Source of the DNA: Leptolyngbyaceae cyanobacterium
GTDB taxonomy: Bacteria; Cyanobacteriota; Cyanobacteriia; Phormidesmidales; Phormidesmidaceae
DNA length: 64,000 bases
Assembly: GCA_965263355.1 (NCBI GenBank)
Contig: CBDHHL010000032.1
Location: forward strand, 928,001-992,000
Direction of reading: 5' to 3'
Shown here: in pieces, positions 9,146 to 53,749 of the stretch
Layout: each line of letters opens with the position of its first letter
How positions within the stretch are numbered: the stretch's first letter is position 1
Notes under the pieces: generated by a model
What the model saw: only the letters and a program-made list of their open reading frames with translations
Told to the model about the DNA's origin: nothing
The model's database searches: none
Program-made: the position numbers and the translations under genes

Positions 9146-9152
9146 GGTACAC

Positions 9153-9190
9153 AAATTGTGGAGACGTTCCATGGAACGTCTCCACAATTT
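9153..9190. repeat. Perfect 38-bp palindrome (REP-like) between fraD and fraE
   Basis: AAATTGTGGAGACGTTCCA|TGGAACGTCTCCACAATTT. Confidence 0.9.
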
Positions 9191-9210
9191 AATATCAATC
9201 ACAAATCGCT

Positions 9211-9993
9211 ATGTTAAATCTTGCTCGTATTATCGTAGTGGCTCGCAATGTCTTTCTAGAAGTCATTCGCGATCGCATCCTATACCTGGCTGGGTTGTTT
9301 GCACTGCTGATGGTTCTGGCGTCGGTAATGCTGCCCCAAGTGGCTGCGGGCACTAGTGACAAAATCTTTTTAGACCTGGGGTTGGCAGCCATCAACCTAT
9401 TTACCCTGGTGGTCGCTATTTTTGTTGGCACCAGCTTGGTCAATAAAGAAATTGAAAAAAAGACGGTGCTGGTCTTACTGGCCAAGCCCGTCAGCCGATT
9501 TGAAATTATCCTGGGCAAACATTTGGGACTGGCTGCTGTAATTGGGGTTTTGATGCTAGTTCAAACGGGGATTTTTATCATCCTACTGACGGTTCAGAGC
9601 ATTGAGTATCCAGCGGGGAGTATGCTGGTTGCGATCGCATTTATGTATCTCGAAATGCTGCTGATCATCGCCATCACCATCGTATTTGGTGTATTTACCA
9701 GTTCGCTATTGGCCACACTGCTCTCCTTTGGTACCTATCTCGTCGGTCACCTCAGCACCGACCTACTTAAACTTAGTCAGCTAGCCGAGTCCCAAGGCTT
9801 CCAAAAAGCTGTAGAAGCCATGTATTTGGTGCTGCCTGACCTGGAACGGTTTAACCTTAAAAACGAAGCTGTTTATGGTGCAGCGTTGTTGCCCGGTCCT
9901 GGCACCTTAGCCTTAAACGTGCTGTATGGCATGATTTACACGGTTTTGTTATTAATCATTGCCGGTAATATTTTTACTCGCCGTCAGTTTTAA
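9211..9993 (+). CDS. fraE: ABC-2-type permease FraE
   Basis: NVFLEVIRDRILY and KEIEKKTVLVLLAKPVSR; located directly after fraD. Confidence 0.85.
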   Translation: MLNLARIIVVARNVFLEVIRDRILYLAGLFALLMVLASVMLPQVAAGTSDKIFLDLGLAAINLFTLVVAIFVGTSLVNKEIEKKTVLVLLAKPVSRFEIILGKHLGLAAVIGVLMLVQTGIFIILLTVQSIEYPAGSMLVAIAFMYLEMLLIIAITIVFGVFTSSLLATLLSFGTYLVGHLSTDLLKLSQLAESQGFQKAVEAMYLVLPDLERFNLKNEAVYGAALLPGPGTLALNVLYGMIYTVLLLIIAGNIFTRRQF

Positions 9994-35294: not shown

Positions 35295-35795
35295 CTACCA
35301 CCAGCGCACCGCCAACATTGAAGCTTCAGGAATATCGTCTTCAGCCGGCCAATCAACTGGTTTGTAGGTACCAAAAATGTGGTCCCACCAGTCAAGACCG
35401 AGGCCAAAATTGTGGTGCCACATACCGTACTTGTGATGAACGTAGTGGACGGGCATTTTCATCCAGAAGCATTTGCGAGGGTTTTCATGCTGCAACTGAT
35501 GGGCATAGGCAGAAAAGGCAGCATAAACGAGGGCACCGCTGGTCCAGCCGAACCCGACGATTAAGGAAAAGATAAAGGGAATAGCCATTGCGATCGCACT
35601 TCCCAATACATAGTCTCGAAACTCCCACAATACGCCCTGACCCTCGTTACGACGATGGTGGTCGCGATGGCGCTCACCCACTTTAGGAGACGCATGCATC
35701 AGCCGATGGAGCCAATACTCCACAAAGCTTGCAAACACAAAGGCTGCAACAAAACTAATCGCAAAAATGACAGACTGGGGCATTAGTAACTCCAT
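35295..35795 (-). CDS. Sterol desaturase / fatty acid hydroxylase family protein
   Basis: His boxes HRLMH, HRDHH, HQLQH and HYVHH; NFG...WWD.IFGT. Confidence 0.9.
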   Translation of the reverse strand: MELLMPQSVIFAISFVAAFVFASFVEYWLHRLMHASPKVGERHRDHHRRNEGQGVLWEFRDYVLGSAIAMAIPFIFSLIVGFGWTSGALVYAAFSAYAHQLQHENPRKCFWMKMPVHYVHHKYGMWHHNFGLGLDWWDHIFGTYKPVDWPAEDDIPEASMLAVRWW

Positions 35796-35884
35796 TAAAG
35801 GTAAGCACGAGCTAATAAGCCCGCTACTTCATTTTATTATTGTGAAATCTTTTTAAGAAGACAAGACGTATTGTAAAGTAGCCC

Positions 35885-37567
35885 ATGCCTTACTCTCCCC
35901 TGCAGTTATCCATGTTTGCCCTGGCGATGGCCAGCCAGTGGCAGCAGCGTGCCTTTACTCGCCAGCTGCCCCAAGCAAGCGCTATCCAAGCTCGGTTTTT
36001 GCAAAAATTACTTAAAGAGCAGCAGGGGACGGCCCTAGGACAAGCCTTAAAACTAGATCGCGTTAGTAGCATTGAGGAATTTCGCCAACAGGTTCCCAAA
36101 TGGAACTACGACGGCTATGCTCCATACTTTGAGCGAGCGGCAGCGGGAGAGCCAAACGTGGTATCACCATTCCCGGTACAGAGTTTTAACATGAGCAGCG
36201 GCTCCACCGGCAGCCGTAAACTCATTCCCATTACCAAACGGGTCAAGCAAACTCGAGCCTATGCCAATCAAATAGCCATGGGCTATGCCTTTGAACAATC
36301 TCGTACCCAGGGGGGTAGCATCGGTCAACTATTGCTGACAACCTCAATCGCACCTCTGGGCACAACGAAGGGCGGCATCACTTACGGCCACGTTAGTGGT
36401 AATCAGTTGCGCACCACACCATCGTTTGCATTCAAACAGCTATTTGCTCAGCCCTATGACGCCATGCTGGTGAATGATACTGCCGCCCGCAACTATGTTT
36501 GTTTGCTGTTTGGTCTACAACAGCGATGGCTGACCTACATAGGTGCTAATTTTCCGCTGATCATGCTACAGCTATGCACTTACCTGGAAAAATTTGGCCC
36601 TGACTTAGTCAACGATATTGAACGGGGTAACATTTCCCAAGATATTTTTCTAGAACCAGAGCTGCGCCAATCATTACAACAACAACTATCGCCCCACCCT
36701 CAACGGGCCAAAGAACTGCAAGCTGTACTAGCTGACCATGGTCGGCTGTTACCTCGCTATGTGTGGCCAAATTTGGCATTTTTAATTACTGCCCGAGGCG
36801 GTCCGTCAGATTTTTATTTTGAACGTTTTAATGAGTATTTTGGGAATACCCCCATTTTTGGCGGTACCTATGCTGCGTCAGAAGCTGTCTTTGGGAGCTA
36901 CTGTCAGCTCAATGCCGACGGAGCTATTTTGGCATTAAAAACAAACTTCTTTGAGTTTGTGGCCCCCGATCAGTGGGAACAGGATAATCCTAAAACCTTA
37001 CTGCCCCATCAGTTGGAAATCGGCGAATATTATCGTGTATTAATCACTAACTATTCAGGATTTTGTCGGTATGATATTGGCGATATCTTACAAGTCATAG
37101 GCAAACGCCACGGTGTTCCTATAATTGTTTTTCGCTACCGTCGGGGGGGAACTCTCTCAGCGATTTCAGAAAAAACGACTGAGTATCATGTCACTCAGGT
37201 CATGGCTGCCTTGCAAGGAAACTTACCCATTGAGGATTTTTGTGTCACTCTCTCAGAATCTCTTATCGATCCCTATTATGTGCTCAACATCGAACTTGCA
37301 GGCAACAATAAACTATCTGATCCAAAACAATTTTTAGCCGCGTTTGATCACCATATGCAACAGACCAATGAGTCCTATGGGTTCAAGCGTCAGAAAAATG
37401 ATATTACCCGTCCCCAACTCAATCTTTTAGCGCCGGGCAGCTTTAAGCAGCTGCGGCAGCAAAGGCTGAAACCAGGAATTTCGGATGATGTTCAAGTGAA
37501 ACTAGCTCATATCAGTTGCGATCGCACGCTCCTGGACAGCATCACCATCATCCAACAAATTCGTTAA
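35885..37567 (+). CDS. GH3 family acyl-adenylate/amido synthetase
   Basis: SSGSTG..KLIP, YAASE and RYDIGD. Confidence 0.9.
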   Translation: MPYSPLQLSMFALAMASQWQQRAFTRQLPQASAIQARFLQKLLKEQQGTALGQALKLDRVSSIEEFRQQVPKWNYDGYAPYFERAAAGEPNVVSPFPVQSFNMSSGSTGSRKLIPITKRVKQTRAYANQIAMGYAFEQSRTQGGSIGQLLLTTSIAPLGTTKGGITYGHVSGNQLRTTPSFAFKQLFAQPYDAMLVNDTAARNYVCLLFGLQQRWLTYIGANFPLIMLQLCTYLEKFGPDLVNDIERGNISQDIFLEPELRQSLQQQLSPHPQRAKELQAVLADHGRLLPRYVWPNLAFLITARGGPSDFYFERFNEYFGNTPIFGGTYAASEAVFGSYCQLNADGAILALKTNFFEFVAPDQWEQDNPKTLLPHQLEIGEYYRVLITNYSGFCRYDIGDILQVIGKRHGVPIIVFRYRRGGTLSAISEKTTEYHVTQVMAALQGNLPIEDFCVTLSESLIDPYYVLNIELAGNNKLSDPKQFLAAFDHHMQQTNESYGFKRQKNDITRPQLNLLAPGSFKQLRQQRLKPGISDDVQVKLAHISCDRTLLDSITIIQQIR

Positions 37568-39318
37568 AACGGCGTGTATTGGATGGAAAAATGAATCCCA
37601 CTGTCCTGCAACCCCTCATCATCCGTATCTAAATCCACCAGGGGAATGCCCCAATCCAAACGGGCAGAAAAATTGTCACTCTGTTGCCAGAACAATCCGA
37701 ACCCTGTTCCGACCAAAGTATCTGGACCAGGGGAACTACCATCATCATTCCAAACAGTACCTACGTCTATAAACGGCGTAACCTGCAATACACCATCTAG
37801 CTCCGGAACCCTGGCAATGGGCCAACGCAACTCCGCCGATAACAACGCCCCATTATCACGCCGTAACGCATCTTGTCGATAACCACGAACACTTTGCCCC
37901 CCGCCCAGGCTAAATTCCTCTTGGGGAAGTAAATCATCGGTAGTGAGCTGCACGTCCCCCCGCAAGAGAAACAATCGATCTGGTTTACCCAATAGTTTGA
38001 TCCACTGCCCTTGACCACGCCAGGAAAAGAACCGGCTATCCGGGGCGTCATCATTGATGGTGGCACCGAGTAAATCCACCCCCACGTTGAACTGCGATCG
38101 CAATGCCAATACATGACGCTGACTGCGCTGCGTCCACTCTTGAAAAAACCGTACGGCACTTGTGCGCGTACGACCATTTTCATCGGCACCAGGGGATAGG
38201 GGAAATGGCCCTATATCGTCTAGACCTAAACGGGTTTGACTGGTTTGATGGGATAGGGTAAGACCCAGAGCCGCGTCCTGGGTAGGCGTTTCAATCAAAG
38301 GATGACGATAACCCAGCTCATAGTAAGCACTGTCAGAGGAAATATCGAGCACCGAAAACGCAGAATTAATCACCCGGCTATCGGCGTAACCAGCTGCTAG
38401 ACGCAACGTATCGTTATTAGGACTGACTGGCACAGTGTAGCTAAAGTCCACACCATCACTGCCGTCAGTATGCTTATAATCCAGCGTAACTCGATCACCT
38501 ATACCAAACAGGTTACCTTCATCCACCCCAAGACTGACCTGGGTGCCGCCAATATTAGGCGATCGATTATTGGCCAAACTTGTATTAACTGCAAACGAGT
38601 CCGCCTCAACCACATCAATGACTAGCAAACTCGTCCCTGGCTGGACTCCGGCTTGTAAATCGGCAGATACCGTTTCTATTAATGGATTTAATTGCAATCG
38701 CTGCAGACCAGCCAAAAGTGTATCTACGTTAAGAGGAGGCTGGGCCCCTAATCCCACGCGACTACGAATATAGTCTTTATCTAGACGCCGGGTACCTCTA
38801 ACAACAATATCCTCTAACCGCCCTTCTACTACCTGAATAACGACAGTATTATCAACAACAGTCTGAGGCGGGATCAATGCTCCAGAGGTTAGATAGCCAG
38901 CTTGCACGTACCGATCGGTAATGGCCGAGCGCAACGCTAAAAGCTCATTAAAACTAAGCTGTCGATTACGATATTGATCCAGTAATTCTGCTAAATCCTC
39001 TTCATCGAAAATGGTGCTACCCATAATCTCGATATTTTCCACATAAAACTTAGCCTCCCCTTCTCCCAATCCCTCATCTGGAGGGACCGGTTCACCAGGA
39101 GAAAGAAGTTCATCCGGAGAAGGTAAGGATGGAGGTAAAGGCTCATCCGGTAAGGGGATCTCTGGCAGCGTCTCAGGCGGAATCGGTGATGTTTGAGCCA
39201 CGAGGGCACTTGCAGACGTCTGCACCATGGCCGGATAAACCAGTAAACAGCCGCACTGCCCTAGACCAAATAATATTTTTGTCAACAAAAATGAATAGTA
39301 TTTGTTTCTTAATACCAT
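37564..39318 (-). CDS. TpsB (ShlB/FhaC/HecB) outer-membrane transporter
   Basis: POTRA Y...GY.TS.A.IPPQ, VRGY motif (SVRGYRQD) and a beta-barrel end with terminal F. Confidence 0.92.
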   Translation of the reverse strand: MVLRNKYYSFLLTKILFGLGQCGCLLVYPAMVQTSASALVAQTSPIPPETLPEIPLPDEPLPPSLPSPDELLSPGEPVPPDEGLGEGEAKFYVENIEIMGSTIFDEEDLAELLDQYRNRQLSFNELLALRSAITDRYVQAGYLTSGALIPPQTVVDNTVVIQVVEGRLEDIVVRGTRRLDKDYIRSRVGLGAQPPLNVDTLLAGLQRLQLNPLIETVSADLQAGVQPGTSLLVIDVVEADSFAVNTSLANNRSPNIGGTQVSLGVDEGNLFGIGDRVTLDYKHTDGSDGVDFSYTVPVSPNNDTLRLAAGYADSRVINSAFSVLDISSDSAYYELGYRHPLIETPTQDAALGLTLSHQTSQTRLGLDDIGPFPLSPGADENGRTRTSAVRFFQEWTQRSQRHVLALRSQFNVGVDLLGATINDDAPDSRFFSWRGQGQWIKLLGKPDRLFLLRGDVQLTTDDLLPQEEFSLGGGQSVRGYRQDALRRDNGALLSAELRWPIARVPELDGVLQVTPFIDVGTVWNDDGSSPGPDTLVGTGFGLFWQQSDNFSARLDWGIPLVDLDTDDEGLQDSGIHFSIQYTPF

Positions 39319-39512
39319 AATCCTATTAAACTGCTATGCGGCCACGGTAGAAACGACTAGCTGTCTCAGGATGCCCCGTTTATATTGAAGTATTTAAATT
39401 TTTCAGCAGTATTGATGACGCGGTCTAGGATACCAGATGACACGATACTGGTTACATTTAGTTCAAGTAACATTAATATCGCCTACAAACTCCCTCAATC
39501 TGAGCTATTCGG

Positions 39513-40913
39513 CTAAAACGTTACAGACTGAATCGGCAATGTTAGGGTGAAGCAGGTTCCCTGCCCTAAGGTGGACGCTACATCAATAGAGCCACTATGC
39601 TTATCGACTACAATCTGCCGCACAATAGCTAACCCTAATCCCGTTCCCCGACCAACCTCTTTGGTCGTAAATAAATGATCAAAAATGCGTGGTTTGACGG
39701 CCTCATCAATGCCTGCACCATTATCCTCAATCTTGATCACAATACATTTATCATCTGCTGCTAAACCAGTGCTGACAGTTATTAGGTTTGATCGAGTCTT
39801 AGGAACTTCACAATTCGCTAGTTGGCTAATATCATCTAGCGTATCAATGGCATTTGCCAACAGATTCATAAAAACCTGGTTCAGTTGACCGGCAAAGCAT
39901 TCAATCTCTGGAATATCCTGGTAGTACTTTTTAACCTCGATTTCTGGTCTATTTTCATTGGCCTTGAGGCGATGCCTTAAAATCAACAAGGTACTATTAA
40001 GACCGTCATGCACATCAAACGATACCTTGTGTTCTTCATCTGCCCGTGAAAATGTGCGAAGACTATCACTAATATTGTGAATACGTTCCATACCTGTGGC
40101 CCAGGAAGACAAAAGTTTTTCTAAGTCTTGGCTTAAAAAATCCAGCTCAATCGATTCAATCCGCTCTTGAATAGCTTGCCCTGGGTCTGGAAATGTCTTT
40201 TGGTACAGTTCGATTAACCCTAACAGCTCCTGAATATATTCTCGGAGTGGCTCTAAGTTACCCTGCAAAAAACTAATGGGGTTATTAAGCTCATGGGCTA
40301 CACCTGCCACCAAATTCCCCAATGCCGACATTTTTTCATTTTGGACTAGCTGCAACTGAGCCTGCTGCAGTTTTTTTAGAGAATCTGATAACTCAGCCGT
40401 ACGTTGCTCAACCCTATGTTCAAGGTCTTGGGCTAATTGGTGGAGCCGAGATTCTGCCACAGTTTTTTCAGCAATCTCCTGGGTTAACAGTTCATTCTTT
40501 TCTTCTAACGCTTGAGTAAGAAATTTCAGGTGCAAATGAAGTTTGACACGCGCGATGACTTCTTTTTGCTGAAAGGGTTTAGTGATGTAGTCTACGGCCC
40601 CCATCTCTAATCCTTGCACCTTGTACTTAGAATCTGAAAGGGCCGTCATAAAAATGATGGGTATCGCCTGGGTCTCAGTATTGGCTTTTAGCCGTTGACA
40701 GGTTTCGAAACCATCAATTCCAGGCATCATCACATCCAACAAAATAAGATTAGGCTGCGCATATTTAGCCTGTTCAATCGCAGATACTCCATCGGTAGCC
40801 ACCAGCATTGTCCAATCATTGCCTTTAAGGGCATCAGACAGCACCTTTAAGTTAGTGGGCTTATCGTCCACTAACAATATCCGCACTGGCTGATCAAAGG
40901 AGCTGCTGGTCAT
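39513..40913 (-). CDS. Cytoplasmic REC-histidine kinase
   Basis: [24 protein letters not shown] box and G boxes. Confidence 0.93.
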
Positions 40914-43711
40914 AGGGATTTTCTAAGTGATACATGAGCCTGTAACAGCTGCTTGATTTTTGCAATCTGAAAATTTGAAGCCAGTGTTTGCAATGTATTA
41001 ATCAACTGTTGTGACTGAGCATCTGTCACCACCAGTGTCTTTAGCTTAGTTTCGATGTCCTGAATATTCCCCATCATCGCCCAGTGGTAAAGCTCATCCA
41101 AGATGGTATCAGGGATTAAAACAGGTGTATCCATCTTTAAATTGATGGGTGAACTTGGTTCAATCTGAGAATTATTCAAATCACTCTCATCGTATAGCCA
41201 CTCAAGCGCAAGCAATGTTTCCAAGGTTTCTGTTAGAGTTTTTAAATCAATGGGTTTAGGCAAAAACGTATTCGCACCAGCCGCTAAACTGCGTTGGCGA
41301 TCCGTTTCAAAAACACTGGCACTAATCACAATTACGGGAATATCTTGAAGTCCTTTGATCTGCCTTAACTGTTGAAGTAAATCAACTCCATTGAGTGTAG
41401 GCATAACCAAATCCGTAATAATCAGGTCAGGATATTGCTGCTTAATTAACTCTAAACCAGTTAAGCCATTGTCAGCACTATAGACATGGAATCCGATAGA
41501 ACCCAAAAAATCCAACAGCAGTTTAGAATCTTCTGAACTATCATCAATGACTAAAATGTTTGGAGTTTTTCCTTTAATACCAATAATTGTTCTGGCTGAG
41601 TCAATAAGGTGACTGCGGTCACCATACTCCAGCACAGGAATTTCCAAATCCATCCAAAACAGACTCCCCTCCCCTGGCATGCTTTGTACCTGAAGCTGGC
41701 TCCCCATTAACGTGACAATTTGTTGACTAATGGCTAGCCCCAAACCTGTTCCCTCTGACTTACGCTGACCATTGCCAACTTGCTCAAATGGTTTGAAAAT
41801 CTGTTCCAATTGGTCTGAAGTTATACCAATTCCCGTATCCTCAACCGATATACGCAGCCGACAATATTGGATTAACTGAGATGAGCCATCAGAAGAAGCG
41901 TTATCTAACCGCTTTACACTAAATGCAACACTCCCTTGATCGGTAAATTTTATAGCGTTACTAATCAGGTTAATCAAGACTTGACGAAAGCGTTTTTCAT
42001 CAATCTTCACTATCTGAGGTAGCGGGTAATCTAGGTTTAGAGTAAAGGTAAGCTCTTTTGCACGGGCACGAATCTGACACATCTCAGCCACACCCGATAG
42101 CAATGGCTCTAGATAAACCTCTTTAGGAAACAGTTCAAGCTTACGGGCCTCAATTTTGGCAAGGTCCAAAATATCATTAATCAAGGTGAGCAGATGGTTA
42201 CCACATTGATGAATAATCGAAATTTTATTGTGCTCTTCGTCTGTTAACGTTCGTGAGTTTTGCAAAATTTGGGTATATCCCAAAATGCCATTGAGGGGTG
42301 TACGTAGCTCATGGCTCATATTGGCTAAAAACTCGCTTTTGGCTTGGTTAGCATTATCAGCAGTCTGTTTAGCTTGGGCAAGTTCTTGCGTACGCTCTTT
42401 CACCTTTGTTTCTAGGGTGAGCGCATAATCTAAAAGCCGTTGATGAGAAAACTTCAACTGCTGATTTGTGAGCTGTAACCGATGTTTTTTAAACCGACTA
42501 GTGGTTGCGATCGCACTCCCCACTAAAGCCACCATCGGTGCCACGACCGGCAACACCCACCCCATTAGAAAACTGATATAACTTCCCCCTAGAAGCAATA
42601 TAGCACTCCCCCCCGTGACGACACTCGGCATTAAAAACCACCGCCGCTGCCGATTTTCTTGATGGTTATAGGTTTCTAAAAACCAATTTCCCAATGTCCC
42701 CCCAAACGCCCACAGAGTAATCCACAGCCACTGATATTCCCATGTCCAGCCCCGCAATAGAGGCCGTTTCCCCAGAGCACTGTCCAATAGATAGCTGGTA
42801 ATGTTGGCATGAATTAGCACACCAGCCATACGCTCATCTGCAGGCCCAAAGCCACCACTGTAGGGAGTGGCAAAAAAGTCCTTAGTACTGGCAGCAATGG
42901 AACCAATGTAGACAATGCGATCGCGCATCAAGCCCTCAGGAATCTTACCTGCCAGTACATCCGTAATTGAAATTTGTTGATATTGATGACTAGGACCATG
43001 CCACCCCATCAACACTTGATAGCCACCTAACTCATGGTTAGGGTAGCCAGCCGCCCGTCGCACCATCGGTAAAAAATCAGCCTGCCCCAACCGAAACTGC
43101 TGCCGGTCAAGGTTAACAGATTCAAGGACAATGCCATCCTGTTCTAGATAATTAAGGGCTAATTGGGTGCCCAACCCAGTTTTAATGACAGATGTTCGTT
43201 TATCTTCAGCAACGACTAAAATACGCCGAATGGTTTGATCCTTATCTGATACAAAATCAGCAACGGCAACCTGGCCAGTCTCTGCCAAGATTGGTGGAGG
43301 AGCTACCTGTCTACCAAAAACCTTCTCCACACCAATCAGTTGAGGTGTTGTCTCAAAAACATCCAGCAGTTGCCGATGCCCTGGCTCTTCCGGTAAATCT
43401 CGATACAGATCTAACCCAATCACCCGAGGCTGCTGAGCCCGAATATTAATTAACACCTGAGCCAAGGTTTTATCCGTAATGGGCCAGTGTCCCAACGCCT
43501 GAATATCCGGCTCATCCACCGTGACCACTACCACCCGATTATCAACAGGTGCTAACGCTCTACGACGATAAAACTCATCGCGGATAGCCCATTCCAACAA
43601 GTTTAACAGACCGAACCCATTGACAAAAATCACAATAGCGGACACACCAGGTGCCACAGACCAAATGGGCTTAGATTGCCGAATAAATTGTCTGAGGGCA
43701 ACTAAAAACAC
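40910..43711 (-). CDS. CHASE2-domain hybrid sensor kinase (CHASE2-3TM-HisKA-HATPase-REC)
   Basis: [28 protein letters not shown] and [10 protein letters not shown]; 4-bp overlap with the downstream REC-HK. Confidence 0.93.
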
Positions 43712-43863
43712 GTACTGATTAATCTATCCGTCAAAATCACACTCCATCCCAATGTTATGAAGTATTCGAGACTTTTAGTCTAAATCAGTAAATGATCAAT
43801 CTCCATGTCTGTTTCACTAAAGGACTTTAACTTTAGTTCGTAACAAATAATGCGCGTGAGTCA

Positions 43864-44883
43864 TCAAAGGAAAGAATGCTCTAACAAAGAATCTAACCCA
43901 ACTGAGTCAAGGAACTCAGTCCAATTAGCAATCGTATCAACCTGAGTTTGAGGATTAAGTTGTAGCTCAGCCAACTGTTCAGCTGCATCGTACCAGATGC
44001 CAGCTTGGGCTAACACCTTAGCTTTCGCCAAACCAGTAAGCCCATCCACTTGAACAACAGAAGCTACATCAACACGCTTAATCCAAGCAGTCACATAGGG
44101 GCTGCTTGGTGTAATGTATTGGCCCGTTTGCAACGTTACAAACCATTGATAATATTTGCCAACAGCTAATTCTGGAGCATTCTCGTGTAGAGTAATCCTC
44201 AAAATACCATCCGCTCCATCCAAAGGAACGACCTGACGATAAATGACTGATCGAGTCTCATCTTTTAGGCTAAAAATCGCAGTATGCGCTTTAGTTTCAG
44301 GCAAATAAGCCATGATTGTAGGTCGCGCTGAAACAGTCAACCCATAAAGGTTGACTGGAGTCACAGGCATCATAGCTGTTACATAATTAGGCGCAAACCC
44401 ATGAACCGCAACACTCCCCTCTTCTGAGGAGAACAGAGCACTATCTTCAACACGACTTTCTCGAGAGGCACCGCTCACTGTACTCTGAGGGGCTGCATTG
44501 TCTGGAGGCGGGGTAAACCCAATTCGAGAGGCACCACTAGTTGCACTATCAGGCGCAGAATTGTCTGGAGGTGGAATAAACCCAATTCGAGAGGCACCAC
44601 CAGTTGCATTATCAGGCGCAGAATTGCCTGGAGGCGGAATAAACCCAATTCGAGAGGCACCACCAGTTGCACTATCAGGCGCAGAATTGTCTGGAGGCGG
44701 AATAAACCTGATACTGCTGCGGGAAGCCCCGCCATCACCACGACTTGGAGCAGTGTTGTCCACCGGAGGAATAAAAGTCACTGCTAAGGTCGGCGCTAGA
44801 GTAGTCAACCAGAGCCCTAAGCTTATATATGTCAGCCTGACTAGATTACTCAACAAGCTATACTTCATCACCATACGCCTCAC
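43864..44883 (-). CDS. Exported DUF928 domain protein with N-terminal peptide repeats
   Basis: Signal peptide; GLTVSARPT..AYLP, L.VGK.YQW and GIWYDA. Confidence 0.88.
   Translation of the reverse strand: MRRMVMKYSLLSNLVRLTYISLGLWLTTLAPTLAVTFIPPVDNTAPSRGDGGASRSSIRFIPPPDNSAPDSATGGASRIGFIPPPGNSAPDNATGGASRIGFIPPPDNSAPDSATSGASRIGFTPPPDNAAPQSTVSGASRESRVEDSALFSSEEGSVAVHGFAPNYVTAMMPVTPVNLYGLTVSARPTIMAYLPETKAHTAIFSLKDETRSVIYRQVVPLDGADGILRITLHENAPELAVGKYYQWFVTLQTGQYITPSSPYVTAWIKRVDVASVVQVDGLTGLAKAKVLAQAGIWYDAAEQLAELQLNPQTQVDTIANWTEFLDSVGLDSLLEHSFL
44461..44781 (-). repeat. Five in-frame 63-bp tandem repeats (21 aa, xxFxPPxxNxAPxxxxxGASR)
   Basis: Unit positions 44521, 44584 and 44647 are exactly 63 bp apart. 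Confidence 0.92.
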
Positions 44884-45270
44884 TTAACCCTAGGTAAGAT
44901 TGCTGAAGTAATCGATACTAAAAATGCAAACGTGCAGATAACCCTTTAACACAGACCTATGCGCCTTACTCTTCCTAGTAAACTTTGTCTCAATTCAAAC
45001 CTCATTTTTTTTTACCGACTTTCTACTAAAAACCATAGTTACGTAGAAATAAGAGAGCCTTATTTAGGATAAATCCTAGTCAATTTTAATCAAAAGCAAG
45101 GACATAATCTTTATGATTATTGAGCATTTTATAGAGCTAATTAGCCCCAAAAAATTTATCGAATACTTATTTTTTTAGTTTTGCGAAAGTTCACCCAAAG
45201 TCTTTTGTAAAAATTCATGAAACGAGTTTACGCAAATTCACGCAAAGTCTCTTTTTTTAGTTACTTCCGC

Positions 45271-47844
45271 TTAGAGCCAGTTACCAATTAACACATAGGG
45301 CGACCAGAAAAAGGGCTCAGCAAAGTCTTTGTTTTTTAACAACTTCAGCTGTGCCTGACGTAGCGCTTCTGCCTTAGTCATCCTAGACTGTCCTAGATTT
45401 TGATAAAAATCGATCATCAGCTGCTTAGCCACTTCATCCCTGACAGACCATAGAGTCGCTAGAGTAGAACGGGCACCCGAGCGAACCGCTAATCCAGCTA
45501 ACCCCAGTGTGGCCCGATCATCCCCTGCAGCTGTTTCACAGGCACTGAGGGTTAACAGCTCAATGGCCTGACTACGCTCCGTTTCCCTACGTTTCAGCAG
45601 CTCTGATAACTCATTGATATTGATAGCCCCATCCCAAGTTAGAAAAAAGGTCTGACTAAAATCAGAACTAAACTGCCCATGGCTTGCTAAGTGGAGCACA
45701 TTGACTTGACGATCGGTCAAACTTTGACGTAGAGACTGACGCGTAAACTGCTGATCTAATAACTGATGTGAAGAAAACAGTTTACTGATATTGCTTACCT
45801 CTTCTTTAACCGCAGGCAATGCACTGAAACGACCGCGGGCCTGACTAATGCCAGCCACAATAGCATTATTGTCTTGGTTCTCTAAAGCATTGGCCGGTAA
45901 TAGCTGTAACCCTGGCGATAGGGCAACAGCATATTTTTCAATCAGGTATTGCTGGCCGTCGTGAAGAGCCGACATCGGTAAATTGCGAAGCAGACCGTCT
46001 AACACAAATACTAGAGTTTGCTCTGGCTTCAACAGACCGGCCTCTTCCGCTGGACGGATTAACCAGTTGTATAGAGTCTGGGCATAGCGTAATTGATCCT
46101 GACGATCGGTGGATGGATGCAGATTAGTTAGAAATGAGCGCAGCGTAGTTTCAAGTTGAGCATATTCGATCTTAGTTTCGTAGGCTTGCAACTGACCAGG
46201 TTGCGAATAAATCACTGCTAGCCGATCATCTAGAATGATGGCGTAAACCACCATGGCGTTGGCATCAATTTGATCAACTTTGTCAGTCTCAAGGTCTATA
46301 CAAGCCTCTCGAAAGAAATTGTCTAATTCTGCTATTTGTAGATTTTCTAAAATCACACGCGCTTTCTGTAAGGAGTTCTGACTCCCCTCTCGTAAAAGCT
46401 GTGAAACCAGATCTCGGTAAACCGGTTCTACCTGCTCTCGGTAGGAAAATTGAATGTCCTGGTTGATTGCTATCAGATCTCCCCGCAGACTTTGTAGAGC
46501 ATCCACCGCCTTCGTGTAAGCATCGATAGACGACTGTAATTCTCCCTGCTGTTCAAATAGCTGTCCCAGCTGCCAGGCTGACTGGGAAATGATATCTGCT
46601 GATTGAATAGATTCGGCTAGGAAAAGGGATTGTTCAGTTAAGTTAAGGGCATCGGTTAGTTGTTTATTCTGACGATATAGCCTTCCTAACTGATAGAGAG
46701 AGTAAGCCTCGGCTCGCCAATCTTTCAGTGCTTTGGCCGCTCTCACACCATTGGCTAATAGCTGACTAATTTGAGGGGTTGACAGAGGCTGAAGATCGTG
46801 GGGAAGTCGAGACAAATTGTGGGCCAGGTTAACGGTACCGTATACGGTCGTACGGCTGGCTGACATTGTAGTGAGCTGCTTTTGAATTTGCGCAGTAAGT
46901 TGAGAAATATCTGCTGTCTCTTCAAGATCGACATAGGTGGAAAGTTTATCTAAACGAGCCTGGAGCTGATCAAGCGGGATGAGCGCAGCGTCCTCCGCAG
47001 CTTGAAAGTAATCCAGCGCCTTTTGAGGTGAATCGACCTCAGCAGCCAACTTACCAATGCTCAAGTAGATAGAACTTAGTTCGGTTTGAGCGTCTAAATT
47101 ACGGGCTAGCTCAAGGCTTTGGGCCAGTACATTGTAACTATCACGGGGAGAACCGATCAGCTGTAGCGTTTGCCCTAAACTGCGCAATGCGGCAATTTTC
47201 AGCTGGCTATCGGGCAGCGTATTTAACTGCTGTGTAATTATTTGCAGTTGATCCTTGGCCCGTCGATAAAAACCTAGGGTTTGTAATGCCTGGGTCTGGT
47301 TAATTCGCACCCCCAAAGCACCCGCTGTGTCATCGGCCTGGAGATAGTAGATCTCTGCTTCTTGCCAAAGCTCTAGGGCGGTTTGAGCCTGACCACCGTG
47401 GTTCAGTGTAAGGCTAGCCTGAGTATTAAGGGTTTGAGCCCACAAAATCGGCTCTATATGGGGGGCCGTTTCCAGTAATGTTCGACTCATTTCAACGGCT
47501 TGCTGAGCCTGATCCCAGTTGTTGAGCGCTTGCTGGGCAGAGGCGATACCATTCCAGCCCATAACCTGACGAGGCAGATCTTCTTGTTGAGACGCTTGCT
47601 GAATGGCAATTTGCCACTGTTCAATTGCAGCCGCAAACTGTCCTGCGTGGTAATGGGTGCGTCCGACTGCCAATAGATCGCTGGCTGATATGGCCTGAAC
47701 TGTTGTAGCTGGTCGCTCTGGTGTTTCAGTAATTGCTGGAACGGGTAAGGTAGGGTTAAATGCGATCGCAACCACCACTAGAAACCCTAATACCCCAAAC
47801 CCCAACCAACGTAATCTTTTTATTCGGAAAGACAAATACGCCAT
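45271..47844 (-). CDS. TPR-CHAT (caspase/separase-like) protease with N-terminal signal/TM segment
   Basis: TPR repeats; catalytic His in LHLASHGQF and Cys in LSACETA; terminal PFFWSPYVLIGNW. Confidence 0.93.
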   Translation of the reverse strand: MAYLSFRIKRLRWLGFGVLGFLVVVAIAFNPTLPVPAITETPERPATTVQAISASDLLAVGRTHYHAGQFAAAIEQWQIAIQQASQQEDLPRQVMGWNGIASAQQALNNWDQAQQAVEMSRTLLETAPHIEPILWAQTLNTQASLTLNHGGQAQTALELWQEAEIYYLQADDTAGALGVRINQTQALQTLGFYRRAKDQLQIITQQLNTLPDSQLKIAALRSLGQTLQLIGSPRDSYNVLAQSLELARNLDAQTELSSIYLSIGKLAAEVDSPQKALDYFQAAEDAALIPLDQLQARLDKLSTYVDLEETADISQLTAQIQKQLTTMSASRTTVYGTVNLAHNLSRLPHDLQPLSTPQISQLLANGVRAAKALKDWRAEAYSLYQLGRLYRQNKQLTDALNLTEQSLFLAESIQSADIISQSAWQLGQLFEQQGELQSSIDAYTKAVDALQSLRGDLIAINQDIQFSYREQVEPVYRDLVSQLLREGSQNSLQKARVILENLQIAELDNFFREACIDLETDKVDQIDANAMVVYAIILDDRLAVIYSQPGQLQAYETKIEYAQLETTLRSFLTNLHPSTDRQDQLRYAQTLYNWLIRPAEEAGLLKPEQTLVFVLDGLLRNLPMSALHDGQQYLIEKYAVALSPGLQLLPANALENQDNNAIVAGISQARGRFSALPAVKEEVSNISKLFSSHQLLDQQFTRQSLRQSLTDRQVNVLHLASHGQFSSDFSQTFFLTWDGAININELSELLKRRETERSQAIELLTLSACETAAGDDRATLGLAGLAVRSGARSTLATLWSVRDEVAKQLMIDFYQNLGQSRMTKAEALRQAQLKLLKNKDFAEPFFWSPYVLIGNWL

Positions 47845-48063
47845 AGTCTGACTTTTGCCCTATGCAACAACAAACGCCCTAACCATTGGTACCATCAAGC
47901 AGACTGCAATACCCTTAACATCAACATCACCCTATAAGTATGTCAACAAGGGACAGCAAACGTCATCAGGAACATGCATCAGTTTGCCCTCATCTAAAGC
48001 TGCATTAATTTTTTTGGGCAGCGTCAAGACTCAGCCTCTCTAAAACCAACTATTCTTTCCTTG

Positions 48064-50721
48064 CTAATTAAAATCCATAGAAGCATCAGCACAGGTAGTT
48101 TTGGAAACCGATGAAACAGCTGCCGCATTCGTTGCAACTAGCTCAACTTGCCCCAGGTCATTGTGATACCAGATATTAGCTTCCTCTAATGTCGCATCAG
48201 TTGACACAACAGAGAATTCAATCTGGGAATCGTTGAGAAAAGAAGTGAGGTCGCGGGTGTCAGTCCAGATGCGATCGCGATGCACCCCCTCAGTCGGGGC
48301 CGCAGGCACTCCACCACGCCCTGTGACAACAAACTGATTACGCCCGCCCGTACAGCCCTGAACAACCTGGTTGCTGGCATCTGCTAAATTTTCAGGCAGT
48401 TCTACCAGTCCTGAATCTGGCTGTACATTAAAGTCATTAATGGCAACCGTACCACTGAGACCAAACTTAGAACTTGCGGTAATGTCGTTATCGGGGGTGA
48501 GTTGTTCGCGGAACATCAATCCAAACAGCCCCTGGGTCGTAATATCAATGTTGCCACCACTGCCAAAAACCGCATTGGCAACAATGTCACTATTCTCTAA
48601 ACCTAGAATGACTGGAGCAACTAAAACAATATTACCTCCAGCAGCCATGTCTGTAGCACTCGTCACAATTTCGCTATTTTGACGCAACAATATCAGCTGA
48701 GTAGCATTGATATTGATATTGCCCTCAATACCCGCTGTTACTTGTGCCTGCAAAACACCATCGTTGAGCACAAGATTGTCTGCAGAGATTGTCAAATTGC
48801 CTGCATTGCCCTCATTCAAACTACTGACCGACACTTGCCCCCCATCGCGAATGGTAATTTGATCGCCATTGAGCCTAATGGCACCTGCATTAAAGCTAGT
48901 AGTTGAGCTAGACGTGATTGCACTATGAAATAATGCATCATCCGATTGTCCAGCAATGTCAATTTCGCTGGCACGAATGTTAATGCTGCCTGCTGCTCCA
49001 AAACCCTCAGTCGATGCCGTAATCTGTCCTCCACGGGAAATCTGCAACTGATCAGCTTCGATATCTAGCGATCCTCCATTACCGGTGGAATCTATATTCA
49101 CACTGGCAACGATACCACTCACCGTATCGGACGCGTCCACAACAGCATCAGCTACCTCAATCAGGTCAGCCTGGATAGAAAGATTGCCCCCATCACCACT
49201 GCCAACAGTATTAACGGCTATTTTGCCCCCTTGAGTAATCGTTAACCGGGGTGTTGTCAGGCTCAGGTCTCCCGCATTTCCAGTAGACTCAAATTCAGCA
49301 CTCGAAAATATACCGCTGGACAAAAGATCCCCAAAAACAACTCCAGTACCTTGAATATCAACGGCATCTGTCGCCGTAATCGTAAACGCCCCTGAGCTAC
49401 CCCCACCAAAGGTACCAGTGCCGATTTGGCTACCCTCCCGCAGTACTAAACGCTCAACATTTAGAATAAAATCCCCACCATCACCTGCATCGGGGCCTTC
49501 TCCAAAGGTCGTCGCTTGAATAAGTGTTGGCTTTTGAGCCAAAAGTTGGTTGGCAGTAATGGTCAGATCCCCTCCTTGACCAGGTCCAAACGTGTCTGCT
49601 GCAATGACAGTCGCGAACTCATTGGAGATCCCCAATAGAGAAATGTCATCCGCATTGATTGTCAGGTCTCCTCCTGCCCCCGTTCCCTCCGCTTCGGCAA
49701 CAATAAAGGCTGTATTTGTCAACGTCAACAGATCTGTCTCAATTAATAGGCTATTGCCCTGTCCTGCAGCTAGGGGACTCACATCAATAACAACCGGGGG
49801 AAAGGTATCATCTCCAATCAGCTCCAACTTGTCAGTAGCGCGAATAGTTAGAGTTTCACCATCAGAGTCTCCCAGGTTAAATGCGAATAGGGCCGCATCG
49901 TCGGTCAGGGTAATCGAGCGACCCTGCAATTGAAATCGACCCCCTCCATCACCACTAACATCAACCATCGCCCCTTGAGTCAGCAGAATATCTTGAAAAT
50001 CAGTAGCATTGTCATAGGTAATCAAAAACGTGTTGGGATCGATGGTGACTTGGCTATCTGCCGCCACACCACCCAGCACAGTATAGCCAGACTCTACGAT
50101 GATGTTACTTCCGAAAAATTGAAGATTACCACCTAACAAACCCAGAGATTCTCCAGTATTGAGAATTAACTCACTTTGATTAAGGGTAATCTCATTGGCC
50201 GTATTACCAAACTGCAAACCGACAGGGGTACTAACGCTTAACAGAGGAGCACTGTTCGAATTACGACTACTAAAACTCAGTTCATCGTTAAATAAAACAC
50301 TCTCGGCTGTACTGGCAAAGAATGATCCTGGCAACAACAAACTTGCATTAGCTCCAAAGGTAATACCGTTGGGATTGATCAGAAATAAATCCGGATTGTT
50401 CCCACCGGTTAGCTCTAATTGTCCATCGATCAAAGAGAGATTTGCCCCCGTTACTCGACCAATAACGACATCCACAGCACTCTGAGTGCCATCTAGCTGA
50501 AACAGCACATCGGCTGTACTGGGTGAAAATTCTTGAAAACTGTGGAACAATGTTGTCAACTGCTGGCTACCGCCCGTGACGGTGAAGGGGCCATCGCCTG
50601 CAATGGTGGTACCCACTGTTCCATCCGCGACTACATTCTGAGCATAGCCAGGCAAAGCCAATGCCAAAATGCCGATTACCCCCAGCCACCCTATGGGCCA
50701 AGCAAATCGTCTATTGCTCAT
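48064..50721 (-). CDS. TpsA / filamentous haemagglutinin N-terminal domain protein (copy 2)
   Basis: Signal peptide, LFHSFQEFS, NPNGITFG and GxGGxLxIxA beta-helix repeats. Confidence 0.92.
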   Translation of the reverse strand: MSNRRFAWPIGWLGVIGILALALPGYAQNVVADGTVGTTIAGDGPFTVTGGSQQLTTLFHSFQEFSPSTADVLFQLDGTQSAVDVVIGRVTGANLSLIDGQLELTGGNNPDLFLINPNGITFGANASLLLPGSFFASTAESVLFNDELSFSSRNSNSAPLLSVSTPVGLQFGNTANEITLNQSELILNTGESLGLLGGNLQFFGSNIIVESGYTVLGGVAADSQVTIDPNTFLITYDNATDFQDILLTQGAMVDVSGDGGGRFQLQGRSITLTDDAALFAFNLGDSDGETLTIRATDKLELIGDDTFPPVVIDVSPLAAGQGNSLLIETDLLTLTNTAFIVAEAEGTGAGGDLTINADDISLLGISNEFATVIAADTFGPGQGGDLTITANQLLAQKPTLIQATTFGEGPDAGDGGDFILNVERLVLREGSQIGTGTFGGGSSGAFTITATDAVDIQGTGVVFGDLLSSGIFSSAEFESTGNAGDLSLTTPRLTITQGGKIAVNTVGSGDGGNLSIQADLIEVADAVVDASDTVSGIVASVNIDSTGNGGSLDIEADQLQISRGGQITASTEGFGAAGSINIRASEIDIAGQSDDALFHSAITSSSTTSFNAGAIRLNGDQITIRDGGQVSVSSLNEGNAGNLTISADNLVLNDGVLQAQVTAGIEGNININATQLILLRQNSEIVTSATDMAAGGNIVLVAPVILGLENSDIVANAVFGSGGNIDITTQGLFGLMFREQLTPDNDITASSKFGLSGTVAINDFNVQPDSGLVELPENLADASNQVVQGCTGGRNQFVVTGRGGVPAAPTEGVHRDRIWTDTRDLTSFLNDSQIEFSVVSTDATLEEANIWYHNDLGQVELVATNAAAVSSVSKTTCADASMDFN

Positions 50722-53700
50722 ATCTACAGGCCATTACAACACAGCATTTTATCTCAGGCCCATCTACCTCACTTAGTTAGAAAGCTCAGGGTAAGGGATG
50801 AGTTTGCACCCATATGGGTTCTAGAGTAGCAGAGATAGCGATGCGATCGCACCAAAGCAATGCTGGCAATTTATCAAGTTTCTTGATATTGATATCTCCA
50901 CCTCCTGCTCAATCATGTAATCCTCATAAAGAAAATGCTGACTTGGAGGAAATGGCACAGGTAGCGCTGGCAAATGATGAAACAGTTGCATTGGCTGAAA
51001 TCAACTCAATTTGTCCTAGAGCATTGGTATACCAGACATTAGCTTCTTCTAAGATCGCATCAGTGGGCAAAACAGAAACTTTAGTTTGAGAATTGTTGAG
51101 AAAAGGAGTGAGGTCGCGGGTGTCAGTCCAGATGAGATCGCGACGCACCCCCTCAGTCGGGGCCACAGGCACTCCACCACGCCCTGTGACAACAAACTGA
51201 TTACGCCCGCCCGTACAGCCCTGAACAACCTGGTTACTGGCATCTGCTAAATTTTCAGGCAGTTCTACCAGTCCTGAATCTGGCTGTACATCAAAGTCAT
51301 TAATGGCAACCGTACCACTAAGACCAAACTTAGAACTTGCGGTAATGTCGTTATCGGGGGTGAGTTGTTCACGGAACACCAACCCAAACAGCCCCTGGGT
51401 CGTAATATCAATATTGCCACCACTGCCAAAAACCGCATTAGCAACAATGTCGCTGTTCTCTAAACCAACAATTACCGGAGCCGTTAAGGTAATATTCCCT
51501 CCTGTTGCCATACCAGTGGCACTGGTCACAATTTGACTATTCTGACGCAGCAATATCACTTCAGTTGCCGTAACTTCAAGATTTCCTTCACTACCGCCAG
51601 TTACCTGAGCTTGAAGAGTTCCATTGTTCAGAGAGAGTCTCTCAGTGGAAATCGATAAGTTACCAGCAGCGCCACCGTTGAGGCTATTGACTGACACAAC
51701 CCCCTGATCACGAATCGTAATCTGATTACCAATAAGATTAACCGAACCAGCATCGGCACTGGCATCGGCATTCGTTGTCGCACCAGACATAATTCCACTG
51801 CTAAACAGACCATCCGTAGATTGTCCCGAGACTTCAATTTCATCGGCACGAATCGTTACAGTCCCCGCATTACCGGCTCCATCCGTAGAGGCCGTAATTT
51901 GTCCACCATTATAAACACTTAAACGATTTGCCTCAATATCTAACGACCCACCATTGCCAGTTGAACCAGTGACAGCATTGGCCACTAAACCACTGACCGC
52001 ATCAACAAAATCTACAATTGGATCGGCCACTTCTATTTCATCGGCTCGAATAGTAATATTCCCTCCATTACCCTCTGCAAGGGTATTGACGGCAACTTTT
52101 CCTCCTGCCACAACGCTTAATCGAGGTGTGGTAATACTCAAGTTGCCAGCGTTTCCAGTCGAACCAGGTTCAGCACTGGAAAATAAACCACTGGATATAA
52201 CACCACCAATAAATGTATTAAATCCAGTAATTTCCACAAAATCTGTCGCCACCACCACTAAATCACCAGCGTTGCCGCCCGCCCCCTCAAACGGACCTGT
52301 TCCTACTTGGGCTCCATCACGTAGAACTAACGACCCAATATTAAATCGTAAATCACTACCATTTCCACTATCAAGTCCTATGCCCAAAACATCACCAGTC
52401 ACCCGCGCCGTACCCTGAGCGATTAAACGCTCAGCAGTAATTTCGATCCCGCCTCCTTGTCCGCTATCATAAGTATTTGCAGCAAGAACAGTTGCAGCTA
52501 TATTTCCATCGGGATCTCCCAACAGCAAAACATCGTTTGCACTGATAGTTATCCCCCCGCTAGCCCCTTGAGCAAGGGTATCGGTACTGACATAAGCTGA
52601 TTGACTAAGCAATAACTGATCTGCCTCAATCAGTAACTGATTACCTCGCCCCTCACCATAAACATCAACGAAGATGAAACTGGTATCGGGTGCCGGCATA
52701 TTTGTTCCAATCACCTCTAATTTTTCAGACGCTTGAATAGTCACTGTTTCACCATCGGCTGCCCCCAGATTAGAGGCTTCTAAAGCCGCATTATCAAGTA
52801 CCCTCACATTACGTCCCTGGACTTGGAATCTACCACCACCATCACCACTAACATCAGCATATGTTCCCTGGTCAAGGGTAACATCCTGAAAAGAAGTTGC
52901 ATTTGTGTAGTCCAACAAAAAAGTATCCGTCTCCAGAGCAACTTCACTTCCTGGGGCTACACTACCCAGAGATAACATTCCCGCAGGAGCGTTCAAGAAA
53001 CTGCCTGTAACCTGCAGCTCTCCCCCCAAGAACCCTAGAGACTCTCCTGGATTAACAACTAGGACTCCTTGATCAATATTAATCGGACTGGCAACAGCCC
53101 CAAACTGTAACCCTACTGGCACACTCACTGACAATAAAGGTGCACTCCCAGGATCGCGGCTGCTAAAACTCAGTCCATCATCGAATAAAACACTCTCCGC
53201 TGTACTGGCAAAAAATGATCCTGGCAACAACAAACTTGCATTAGCACCAAAAGTAATACCGTTGGGATTGATCAGAAATAAGTCTGGATTGTTTCCACCG
53301 GTTAACTCTAACTGCCCATCAATTAAAGAGAGATTTGCCCCCGTTACTCGACCAATAACGACATCCACAGCACTCTGAGTGCCATCTAGCTGAAACAGCA
53401 CATCGGCTGTACTGGGCGAAAATTCTTGAAAACTATGGAACAATGTTGTCAACTGCTGGCTACCGCCCGTGACGGTGAAGGGGCCATCGCCTGCAATGGT
53501 GGTACCCACTGTTCCATCCGCGACTACATTCTGAGCATAGCCAGGCAAAGCCAATGCCAAAATGCCGATTACCCCCAGCCACCCTATGGGCCAAGCAAAT
53601 CGTCTATTGCTCATATCTACAGGCCATTACAACACAGCATTTTATCTCAGGCCCATCTACCTCACTTAGTTAGAAAGCTCAGGGTAAGGGATGAGTTTGC

Positions 53701-53749
53701 ACCCATATGGGTTCTAGAGTAGCAGAGATAGCGATGCGATCGCACCAAA
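50290..53749. repeat. Direct repeat of about 570 bp (50290..50856 and 53183..53749, offset 2893) covering the tpsA 5' end and upstream region
   Basis: Near-identical nucleotide sequence; both copies end at GCGATCGCACCAAA. Confidence 0.9.
50924..53614 (-). CDS. TpsA / filamentous haemagglutinin N-terminal domain protein (copy 1)
   Basis: Same motifs as copy 2; about the first 143 aa are identical to copy 2. Confidence 0.92.
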   Translation of the reverse strand: MSNRRFAWPIGWLGVIGILALALPGYAQNVVADGTVGTTIAGDGPFTVTGGSQQLTTLFHSFQEFSPSTADVLFQLDGTQSAVDVVIGRVTGANLSLIDGQLELTGGNNPDLFLINPNGITFGANASLLLPGSFFASTAESVLFDDGLSFSSRDPGSAPLLSVSVPVGLQFGAVASPINIDQGVLVVNPGESLGFLGGELQVTGSFLNAPAGMLSLGSVAPGSEVALETDTFLLDYTNATSFQDVTLDQGTYADVSGDGGGRFQVQGRNVRVLDNAALEASNLGAADGETVTIQASEKLEVIGTNMPAPDTSFIFVDVYGEGRGNQLLIEADQLLLSQSAYVSTDTLAQGASGGITISANDVLLLGDPDGNIAATVLAANTYDSGQGGGIEITAERLIAQGTARVTGDVLGIGLDSGNGSDLRFNIGSLVLRDGAQVGTGPFEGAGGNAGDLVVVATDFVEITGFNTFIGGVISSGLFSSAEPGSTGNAGNLSITTPRLSVVAGGKVAVNTLAEGNGGNITIRADEIEVADPIVDFVDAVSGLVANAVTGSTGNGGSLDIEANRLSVYNGGQITASTDGAGNAGTVTIRADEIEVSGQSTDGLFSSGIMSGATTNADASADAGSVNLIGNQITIRDQGVVSVNSLNGGAAGNLSISTERLSLNNGTLQAQVTGGSEGNLEVTATEVILLRQNSQIVTSATGMATGGNITLTAPVIVGLENSDIVANAVFGSGGNIDITTQGLFGLVFREQLTPDNDITASSKFGLSGTVAINDFDVQPDSGLVELPENLADASNQVVQGCTGGRNQFVVTGRGGVPVAPTEGVRRDLIWTDTRDLTPFLNNSQTKVSVLPTDAILEEANVWYTNALGQIELISANATVSSFASATCAISSKSAFSL

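Follow-up and report, generated by a model that had tools for sequence, protein, structure and literature searches.

Seven consecutive genes on the minus strand of a 64,000-nucleotide stretch of DNA from a Leptolyngbyaceae cyanobacterium (assembly GCA_965263355.1, contig CBDHHL010000032.1, positions 928,001 to 992,000; hereafter the window) represent one instance of a gene set co-inherited by many cyanobacteria. They encode two TpsA proteins, a TPR-CHAT protein of the caspase-like proteases, a DUF928 protein, a CHASE2 hybrid histidine kinase, a soluble REC-histidine kinase and a TpsB transporter. The DUF928 protein carries a tandem repeat, each unit of which ends in Arg, and in a paralogous lineage in which this residue is Leu, specific residues of the adjacent CHAT and CHASE2 proteins have changed as well. 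The mechanism given below is a proposal.

According to this proposal, TPR-CHAT would act as an exported protease that cleaves the DUF928 precursor behind the terminal Arg of every repeat unit. The released peptides of about 21 residues would be ligands of the CHASE2 domain and would alter the activity of the hybrid kinase, which would pass phosphate to the REC-kinase. In the receptor, Asp105 and Asp158 would bind the terminal Arg, and Arg162 and Arg163 would probably bind the new carboxylate. The least supported steps lie upstream: the TpsA filaments would stay held in TpsB by a C-terminal disulfide loop, this loop would dock on TPR-CHAT, and engagement of the variable TpsA passenger from outside would switch the protease on. 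We infer cleavage, export, the roles of residues in the S1 pocket, the contacts of Asp and Arg with the ligand, and the direction of the kinase change. That CHAT cuts after the tip residue and that the freed peptides are the CHASE2 ligand is in our judgement an even bet, and the whole chain including the TpsA trigger is tentative. The features concerned are as follows.

50924..53614, minus strand: TpsA-1, 896 residues; TPS domain by Pfam (PF05860); signal-like N-terminus, TPS domain, predicted beta-helical passenger and C-terminal domain
48064..50721, minus strand: TpsA-2, 885 residues; TPS domain by Pfam (PF05860); same plan as TpsA-1
45271..47844, minus strand: TPR-CHAT protein, putative clan CD protease, 857 residues; TPR and CHAT by Pfam, signal-like N-terminus
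43864..44883, minus strand: DUF928 protein by Pfam; likely start ATG at 44868, giving 334 residues; signal peptide, repeat region, then Ig-like and short TPR-like core
44782..44868, minus strand: predicted DUF928 signal peptide (heuristic), 29 residues, ending in Thr-Leu-Ala
44461..44781, minus strand: five tandem DUF928 units, candidate peptide ligands, 21-23 residues each
40910..43711, minus strand: CHASE2 hybrid histidine kinase, 933 residues; CHASE2-HisKA-HATPase-REC by Pfam
39513..40913, minus strand: soluble REC-histidine kinase, 466 residues; REC-HisKA-HATPase by Pfam
37564..39318, minus strand: TpsB/ShlB-type outer-membrane transporter, 584 residues; POTRA and ShlB (PF08479, PF03865)

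A gene set co-inherited in cyanobacteria

A preliminary description of the window had listed seven consecutive open reading frames (ORFs) on the minus strand, and ORF and Pfam analysis found all of them intact. It had also called the REC-kinase translationally coupled, in agreement with an overlap of 4 nt (40910-40913) between its start and the stop of the upstream kinase gene. Hydrophobic N-terminal segments, called by a hydropathy heuristic, are present in both TpsAs, CHAT, DUF928 and TpsB, and all five proteins are probably exported; for CHAT, for which an export signal had been claimed, the same heuristic at the chosen cut-off calls such a segment in 59 of 66 complete orthologues. A scan of the locus for promoters and terminators did no better than chance (27 vs 26.1 and 13 vs 15.9). 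Leptolyngbya/Leptothoe-type cyanobacteria are the closest named relatives.

The gene order is conserved. In a scan of GTDB genomes, for which the best 80 of 186 DUF928 matches were kept and loci were scored where the contig allowed a verdict, TPR-CHAT lies at most 1.5 kb upstream of DUF928 in 72/74 evaluable loci, a CHASE2 gene adjoins DUF928 in 65/75, and the REC-kinase follows in 54/66; among 43 long loci, TpsA is present in 39 and TpsB in 19. A CHASE2 cyclase replaces the kinase in two loci (L054 and L073). Gene-neighbourhood statistics, proposed as a check in the preliminary description, put the clustering far above chance: in five genomes with 51 full DUF928 matches (three fragments were dropped), 41 of the 51 genes are at most 4 kb from CHASE2, with 0.9 expected, and 26 have a CHAT gene within 4 kb, with 1.6 expected (best 150 of 220 CHAT matches).

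DUF928 is present in 19 of 61 sampled cyanobacterial genomes. Co-inheritance was profiled by comparing 18 DUF928-positive genomes (the centre genome being excluded) with the 18 of the 42 DUF928-negative genomes that have at least 3.2 Mb. Matches to the CHAT subfamily profile and to the TPS domain were each found in 18/18 positive and 0/18 negative genomes, the latter being empty for CHAT even at an E value of 1e-40, and the copy numbers of DUF928 and CHAT correlate (Spearman 0.82, n=18). Because all three co-occur in this manner, whereas CHASE2 is present in all 18 negative genomes, TpsA, CHAT and DUF928 travel as a unit, which plugs into a subset of CHASE2 receptors.

Several variants of the locus were encountered. 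The Phormidesmis-type loci L015, L018, L019, L031, L041 and L062 retain CHAT-DUF928 without a neighbouring CHASE2 gene, and L015 is flanked by leuS and a radical SAM gene. Some Nostoc loci (L028:4174-6555 and L040:4290-6617) encode a protein of 775-793 residues with type IV pilin-like G/H domains between tpsA and CHAT. Tandem arrays of three to four DUF928 genes occur at G005:C1:3325843-3328898 and G066:C80:61581-64378, the former without CHASE2 within 28 kb. Long DUF928 fusions (750-2140 residues) were sought and none was found, which is weak evidence; the DUF928 matches of 474-543 residues are tandem DUF928 only.

An Arg/Leu switch with changes in two partner proteins

In one paralogue lineage the DUF928 motif ends in Leu. 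Sorting of 152 paralogous DUF928 rows by this residue gave 88 with Arg and 54 with Leu or Phe, ten ambiguous rows being dropped. In the adjacent CHAT protein, the residue two positions before the catalytic His is Ala in 40/40 cases of the Arg type and Lys in 31/31 cases of the Leu type (30 distinct proteins), and Asp803 is kept in all CHATs of both types. In the adjacent CHASE2 protein, the position of window Asp105 is occupied by Asp or Glu in 52/61 Arg-type and 0/48 Leu-type receptors, and that of window Asp158 by Asp in 58/62 and 7/49, respectively; Arg162 and Arg163 are kept in 59/59 and 58/59 Leu-type receptors. The columns that switch make up 7 of 68 conserved columns in CHAT and 3 of 53 in CHASE2, and two of these three are Asp105 and Asp158. 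The window proteins belong to the Arg-type set, with Ala720 in CHAT and Asp105, Asp158, Arg162 and Arg163 in CHASE2, and the sister locus L192 retains Arg, Ala and both Asp residues.

CHAT and CHASE2 both appear to read the same end residue of DUF928. The chemistry of the switch would fit this: acidic residues disappear from the receptor when the charge of the tip is lost, and in the protease a Lys appears next to the presumed S1 Asp. It should be noted that the Arg/Leu covariation is a single natural experiment and not a statistic.

This covariation bears on the possibility that the genes form a co-regulated adhesin locus with no direct chain between the proteins, in which the kinases control the expression of secretion genes and the remaining genes serve export housekeeping. 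The tps operons are commonly controlled by two-component systems (PMC5422565), and in 8 Phormidesmis-type loci no CHASE2 gene adjoins DUF928. Nevertheless, a CHASE2 protein of 52-55% identity is encoded elsewhere in four of the five Phormidesmis-type genomes searched, and mere co-regulation would leave residue-level covariation among three proteins unexplained, so that we regard it as very improbable.

Proposed peptide release and its alternatives

The preliminary description had reported an intact His/Cys dyad in the TPR-CHAT protein. The CHAT domain (PF12770, E 2e-60) indeed has His722 and Cys769, the dyad motifs are present in 72/72 orthologous CHATs, and His722, Cys769 and Asp803 are invariant in the 46/46 CHATs that were aligned. 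We take Asp803 to be the equivalent of the S1 Asp of separase, and Ser156 of TbMCA2 presumably occupies the place of residue 720, two residues before its catalytic His. Asp803 and position 720 may shape the S1 pocket of CHAT, given that a conserved Asp of separase serves its P1 Arg (PMC10317155) and that in clan CD the loop bearing the catalytic His helps to form the S1 pocket (PMC4357240). The putative protease would then prefer Arg at P1, a preference suggested by Asp803 together with the switch in the Leu lineage. No solved structure was matched by the sequence of the window CHAT alone; a CHAT profile matches 7ZOQ (E 0.0019) and 8TL0 (E 0.011), and the column of Asp803 holds Asp in 8TL0 and another residue in 7ZOQ and 8D9H. 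In the accessible part of the SAVED-CHAT preprint no cleavage site was found, and 8TL0 was therefore not counted as proof of Arg specificity. As a side observation, 62 of 66 mature orthologous CHATs have only two Cys residues, the catalytic one and a conserved Cys515 (window 45271-47844), which is lost in the Leu-type CHAT lineage and could possibly serve as a periplasmic redox latch.

The five-unit Arg-ended repeat in DUF928 is new here and was absent from the preliminary description. The units (F-x-P-P...G-A-S-R) follow directly behind the signal peptide and end with Arg at residues 50, 73, 94, 115 and 136; in a structure model the repeat region is disordered or of low confidence and the core is confident. 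Of 359 homologues scored, 162 contain a single motif and 184 contain two to eight; the remaining 13 were missed by the pattern. In the multi-unit homologues, unit length is 21-23 residues for 454 of 476 units. The Phe of the first unit follows the putative signal-peptidase Ala at a distance of 3 residues in 114/142 proteins, and the Phe of later units lies 3-5 residues after the preceding Arg in 459/476 cases, so that after cutting at Arg the later units would share the register of the first. Sequence conservation drops immediately behind the unit-ending Arg. DUF928 has the layout of a multi-copy precursor, with a signal peptide, tandem conserved units, a fixed terminal residue, and a linked protease and receptor, and its repeats may thus be a peptide precursor with putatively released, active units. 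A correlation between loss of a Cys pair and repeat expansion was discounted as evidence, because it stems from one clade (55/97 rows used).

The proposed receptor of these peptides has a CHASE2 domain (PF05226, E 4e-58) between a transmembrane segment at residues 16-34 and further transmembrane segments at 364-401, followed by intact kinase and receiver residues (His467 and Asp767), and the phospho-sites of the REC-kinase are also intact (Asp60 and His207). A kinase tail of about 100 residues behind the receiver domain (40910-41220) has no Pfam match and could be a degenerate phosphotransfer domain. Prediction of a DUF928-CHASE2 complex, another check named in the preliminary description, was carried out with the CHASE2 ectodomain and the uncut chain of DUF928 residues 112-334, and passed with a score of 0.53 versus 0.10 for the best control. 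We rate this as weak support: the mark was reached by 116/157 solved and 2/215 mismatched pairs, and with a score of at most 0.60 by 18/157 solved pairs and both of the mismatched pairs. The runs share at least 58% of contacts, with a partner predicted local distance difference test (pLDDT) value of at least 71. The CHASE2 model itself (pLDDT 90.8) had no clear match among solved folds (best Z 5.1) and yielded no ligand clue, and thus the pass is unlikely to stem from a remembered complex. The preliminary description had suggested that CHAT processes DUF928 and that the product is the CHASE2 ligand; the Arg-ended repeats, the joint switch and the complex prediction support this indirectly, with cleavage itself as a step that we infer.

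Uncut DUF928 could instead be the ligand or a co-receptor, with its Arg tip plugging CHASE2, its repeats acting multivalently, and CHAT either sequestering the tip or cutting it to silence the signal. This would explain the same three-way switch and would fit a complex prediction obtained with the uncut chain, as well as the conservation of the structured core and of a Cys pair that would tether the tip region to the core in 147/162 single-motif homologues; furthermore, the prodomain of gingipain acts as an inhibitor by placing an Arg in the S1 pocket (PMC4357240). However, neither the match between the unit register and the signal-peptidase product nor the stop of conservation at Arg would be explained, and we consider action of the uncut protein unlikely, though to be taken seriously.

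The filament proteins have their own candidate cleavage site. Both TpsAs show the attributes of two-partner secretion, with a signal-like N-terminus, a TPS domain (PF05860, E 5e-37 and 3e-34; TIGR01901 was also matched) and a linked TpsB with POTRA and a ShlB barrel. The only two Cys residues of TpsA-1 (800 and 886) flank a TGRGG motif at 810, the corresponding positions in TpsA-2 being Cys 790 and 877 and TGRGG at 800, and exactly two C-terminal Cys residues are present in 100/101 TpsA homologues. Disulfide anchors are known for HMW1, HxuA and CdrA (PMC5422565, PMC11898600), and the TpsA Cys pair matches anchors of this type, with a putative disulfide and putative retention in the TpsB pore. 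The two TpsAs are nearly identical at their ends (94-98% at residues 700-800), and in the middle their identity is 36-64%, a pattern to be expected of variable passengers that use one pore and one protease. Four natural TPS-CHAT fusions, which all come from a single genome, are without the TGRGG loop, retain the dyad and stand beside DUF928 and CHASE2, so that the loop may be read as a docking element that the fusion replaces; a link between TpsA and CHAT is supported by these fusions and by co-inheritance. At the DNA level, about 132 bases upstream of the two tpsA genes (53614-53746 and 50721-50853) and about 280 coding bases at their 5' ends are identical, which suggests recent gene conversion or cassette-like passenger exchange.

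On this evidence, CHAT might cut TGRGG in the TpsA anchor loop and shed the adhesin, as in the release of CdrA by LapG, with DUF928 as a pseudosubstrate regulator through which the protease is linked to the CHASE2 state. The loop Arg is conserved in 90/96 TpsAs, cleavage of the CdrA tail by LapG is established, as are disulfide anchors (PMC5422565, PMC11898600), and TpsA, CHAT and DUF928 are inherited all-or-none, which is not true of CHASE2. However, the fusions have no loop and yet keep the dyad and DUF928, and the loop residue ignores the switch: L116, with Gln, and L190, with Arg, both encode a Lys-type CHAT, and L204, a Leu-type locus without a scored CHAT, has Arg (three loci in all). 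In addition, the receptor is an intact kinase, or a cyclase in two loci, which fits a signal output. Release of the filament as the primary function of CHAT is thus improbable.

Several observations also weigh against release of DUF928 peptides as CHASE2 ligands. The Leu-type set was deliberately enriched, and the counts of the switch are not independent, because the change from Arg to Leu arose once according to the CHAT tree (support 99) and once or twice according to the CHASE2 tree. What covariation demonstrates is recognition rather than cutting. In 9/61 Arg-type receptors Asp105 is replaced by Asn or His, and because Leu-type CHATs keep Asp803, peptide release would require that the new Lys neutralises it. 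The conserved loop Arg of TpsA is a competing substrate site that keeps filament release alive as an explanation, and the multi-repeat, Cys-less form of DUF928 is a single clade. CHASE2 is present in 18/18 DUF928-negative genomes of at least 3.2 Mb, and in the five genomes 43/84 CHASE2 matches are more than 4 kb from any DUF928 match, and therefore the DUF928 pathway cannot be the sole CHASE2 input. As regards co-inheritance, the CHAT cut-off of 1e-95 was set after the first results, although the negatives are still empty at 1e-40, and the profiled genomes may be close relatives of one another.

Related systems, significance and flanking genes

Precursors that are cut by a dedicated protease to yield a peptide read by a membrane receptor are represented by the yeast alpha-factor and by ComC/ComD and AgrD/AgrC of Gram-positive bacteria; the peptide proposed here would differ in being periplasmic in a Gram-negative cell and under the control of a secreted filament, and no homology is claimed. 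A His/Cys dyad and a TPR-controlled CHAT domain are likewise present in Csx29 (7ZOQ, 8D9H), SAVED-CHAT (8TL0), separase and HetF. These proteins are cytoplasmic and act in defence or the cell cycle, and the window CHAT differs from them by its export-like N-terminus. LapG does not belong to clan CD, and LapD relays cyclic di-GMP inside-out; in place of a LapG-family protease and a LapD that binds cyclic di-GMP, the window has CHAT and CHASE2-HisKA-HATPase-REC. The likeness to CdrA/CdrB and LapG/LapD of Pseudomonas aeruginosa consists of a Cys-anchored TpsA, a periplasmic cysteine protease and an inner-membrane receptor (PMC5422565, PMC11898600), but that system is not known to have a DUF928-like protein, and fusions of protease and TpsA occur among clusters of the window type.

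The DUF928 core folds like the C-terminal Ig-like and TPR-like part of MtxA (PDB 4Z29) from magnetotactic bacteria, with a Foldseek E value of 5e-5 and a Z score of 11.2 (next row 8.0; root-mean-square deviation 4.1, 147 aligned residues, 12% identity). MtxA is an exported protein, and the gene of a CHASE2 adenylate cyclase comes after its own (PMC4439547), so that both clusters encode an exported protein with this fold directly before a CHASE2 receptor gene. MtxA differs by a predicted beta-rich N-terminal region instead of disordered Arg-ended repeats, and the accessible part of PMC4439547 mentions no CHAT, TpsA or mechanism. On the window protein, Pfam reported DUF928 only and no match to an MtxA model, and an Atlas search gave only leads below 0.9, with an MtxA-family lead at 0.78.

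In Sinorhizobium meliloti, CHASE2 receptors answer a protein signal sensed at the outer membrane (NsrA - CyaK/CyaD1/CyaD2 - Clr; PMC13001267). This pathway shares the CHASE2 receptor and the outside-in logic; it differs by a beta-barrel sensor instead of TpsA/TpsB and by a cyclic AMP output instead of a phosphorelay, and no protease or peptide precursor is mentioned in the accessible part of the paper. The window receptor has a kinase output rather than the cyclase output and Crp-type reader of the NsrA pathway. A link of CHASE2 with a caspase-like domain in conserved neighbourhoods has been described for EACC2-caspase-CHASE2 fusions (Kaur et al. 2021, PMC8195603), which differ in that an N-terminal caspase is fused to the receptor, and for which the accessible text mentions no TpsA or exported CHAT. 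Among the partners of paralogous DUF928 proteins are several of about 800 residues with a C-terminal CHASE2 domain.

A full-text literature search, with most subscription papers and supplements outside its reach, found no description of the module; DUF928 turned up in a single paper, in which one CHASE2-DUF928 neighbourhood and the acid-stress response of sll1891 are noted (PMC5587647). The CHASE2 ligand was still called unknown in 2023, in a study of a CHASE2-GGDEF protein that controls motility and biofilm in Leptolyngbya (PMC10581220). The locus names a concrete candidate, a synthesisable peptide of about 21 residues, together with the residues predicted to read it (Asp105 and Asp158 in CHASE2, Ala720 and Asp803 in CHAT), and the natural Arg-type and Leu-type pairs provide a built-in swap control. 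If true, the proposal would give exported caspase-like proteases and cyanobacterial TpsA arrays a signalling role. Families of insulated trans-envelope relays might then exist in cyanobacteria, with TpsAs as surface receptors, a caspase-like effector, DUF928 peptides as CHASE2 ligands, a last-residue code (Arg or Leu) and amplification by tandem units, a generalisation that we advance with some doubt.

Outside the cluster, a GH3-family gene, with a stop that overlaps that of tpsB by 4 nt, and a divergent gene for a fatty acid hydroxylase occupy 35295-37567, and a convergent ORF of similar size is also found 3' of tpsB in loci L001 and L003. A trio of fraC, a DUF5357 gene and an ABC-2 membrane gene at 7584-9993 is consistent with a filamentous cyanobacterium. 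At 15543-18782 the window encodes a protein of 1079 residues that resembles phosphorylase b kinase regulatory subunits (Glyco_hydro_15 and KPBB_C) in a cyanobacterial context.

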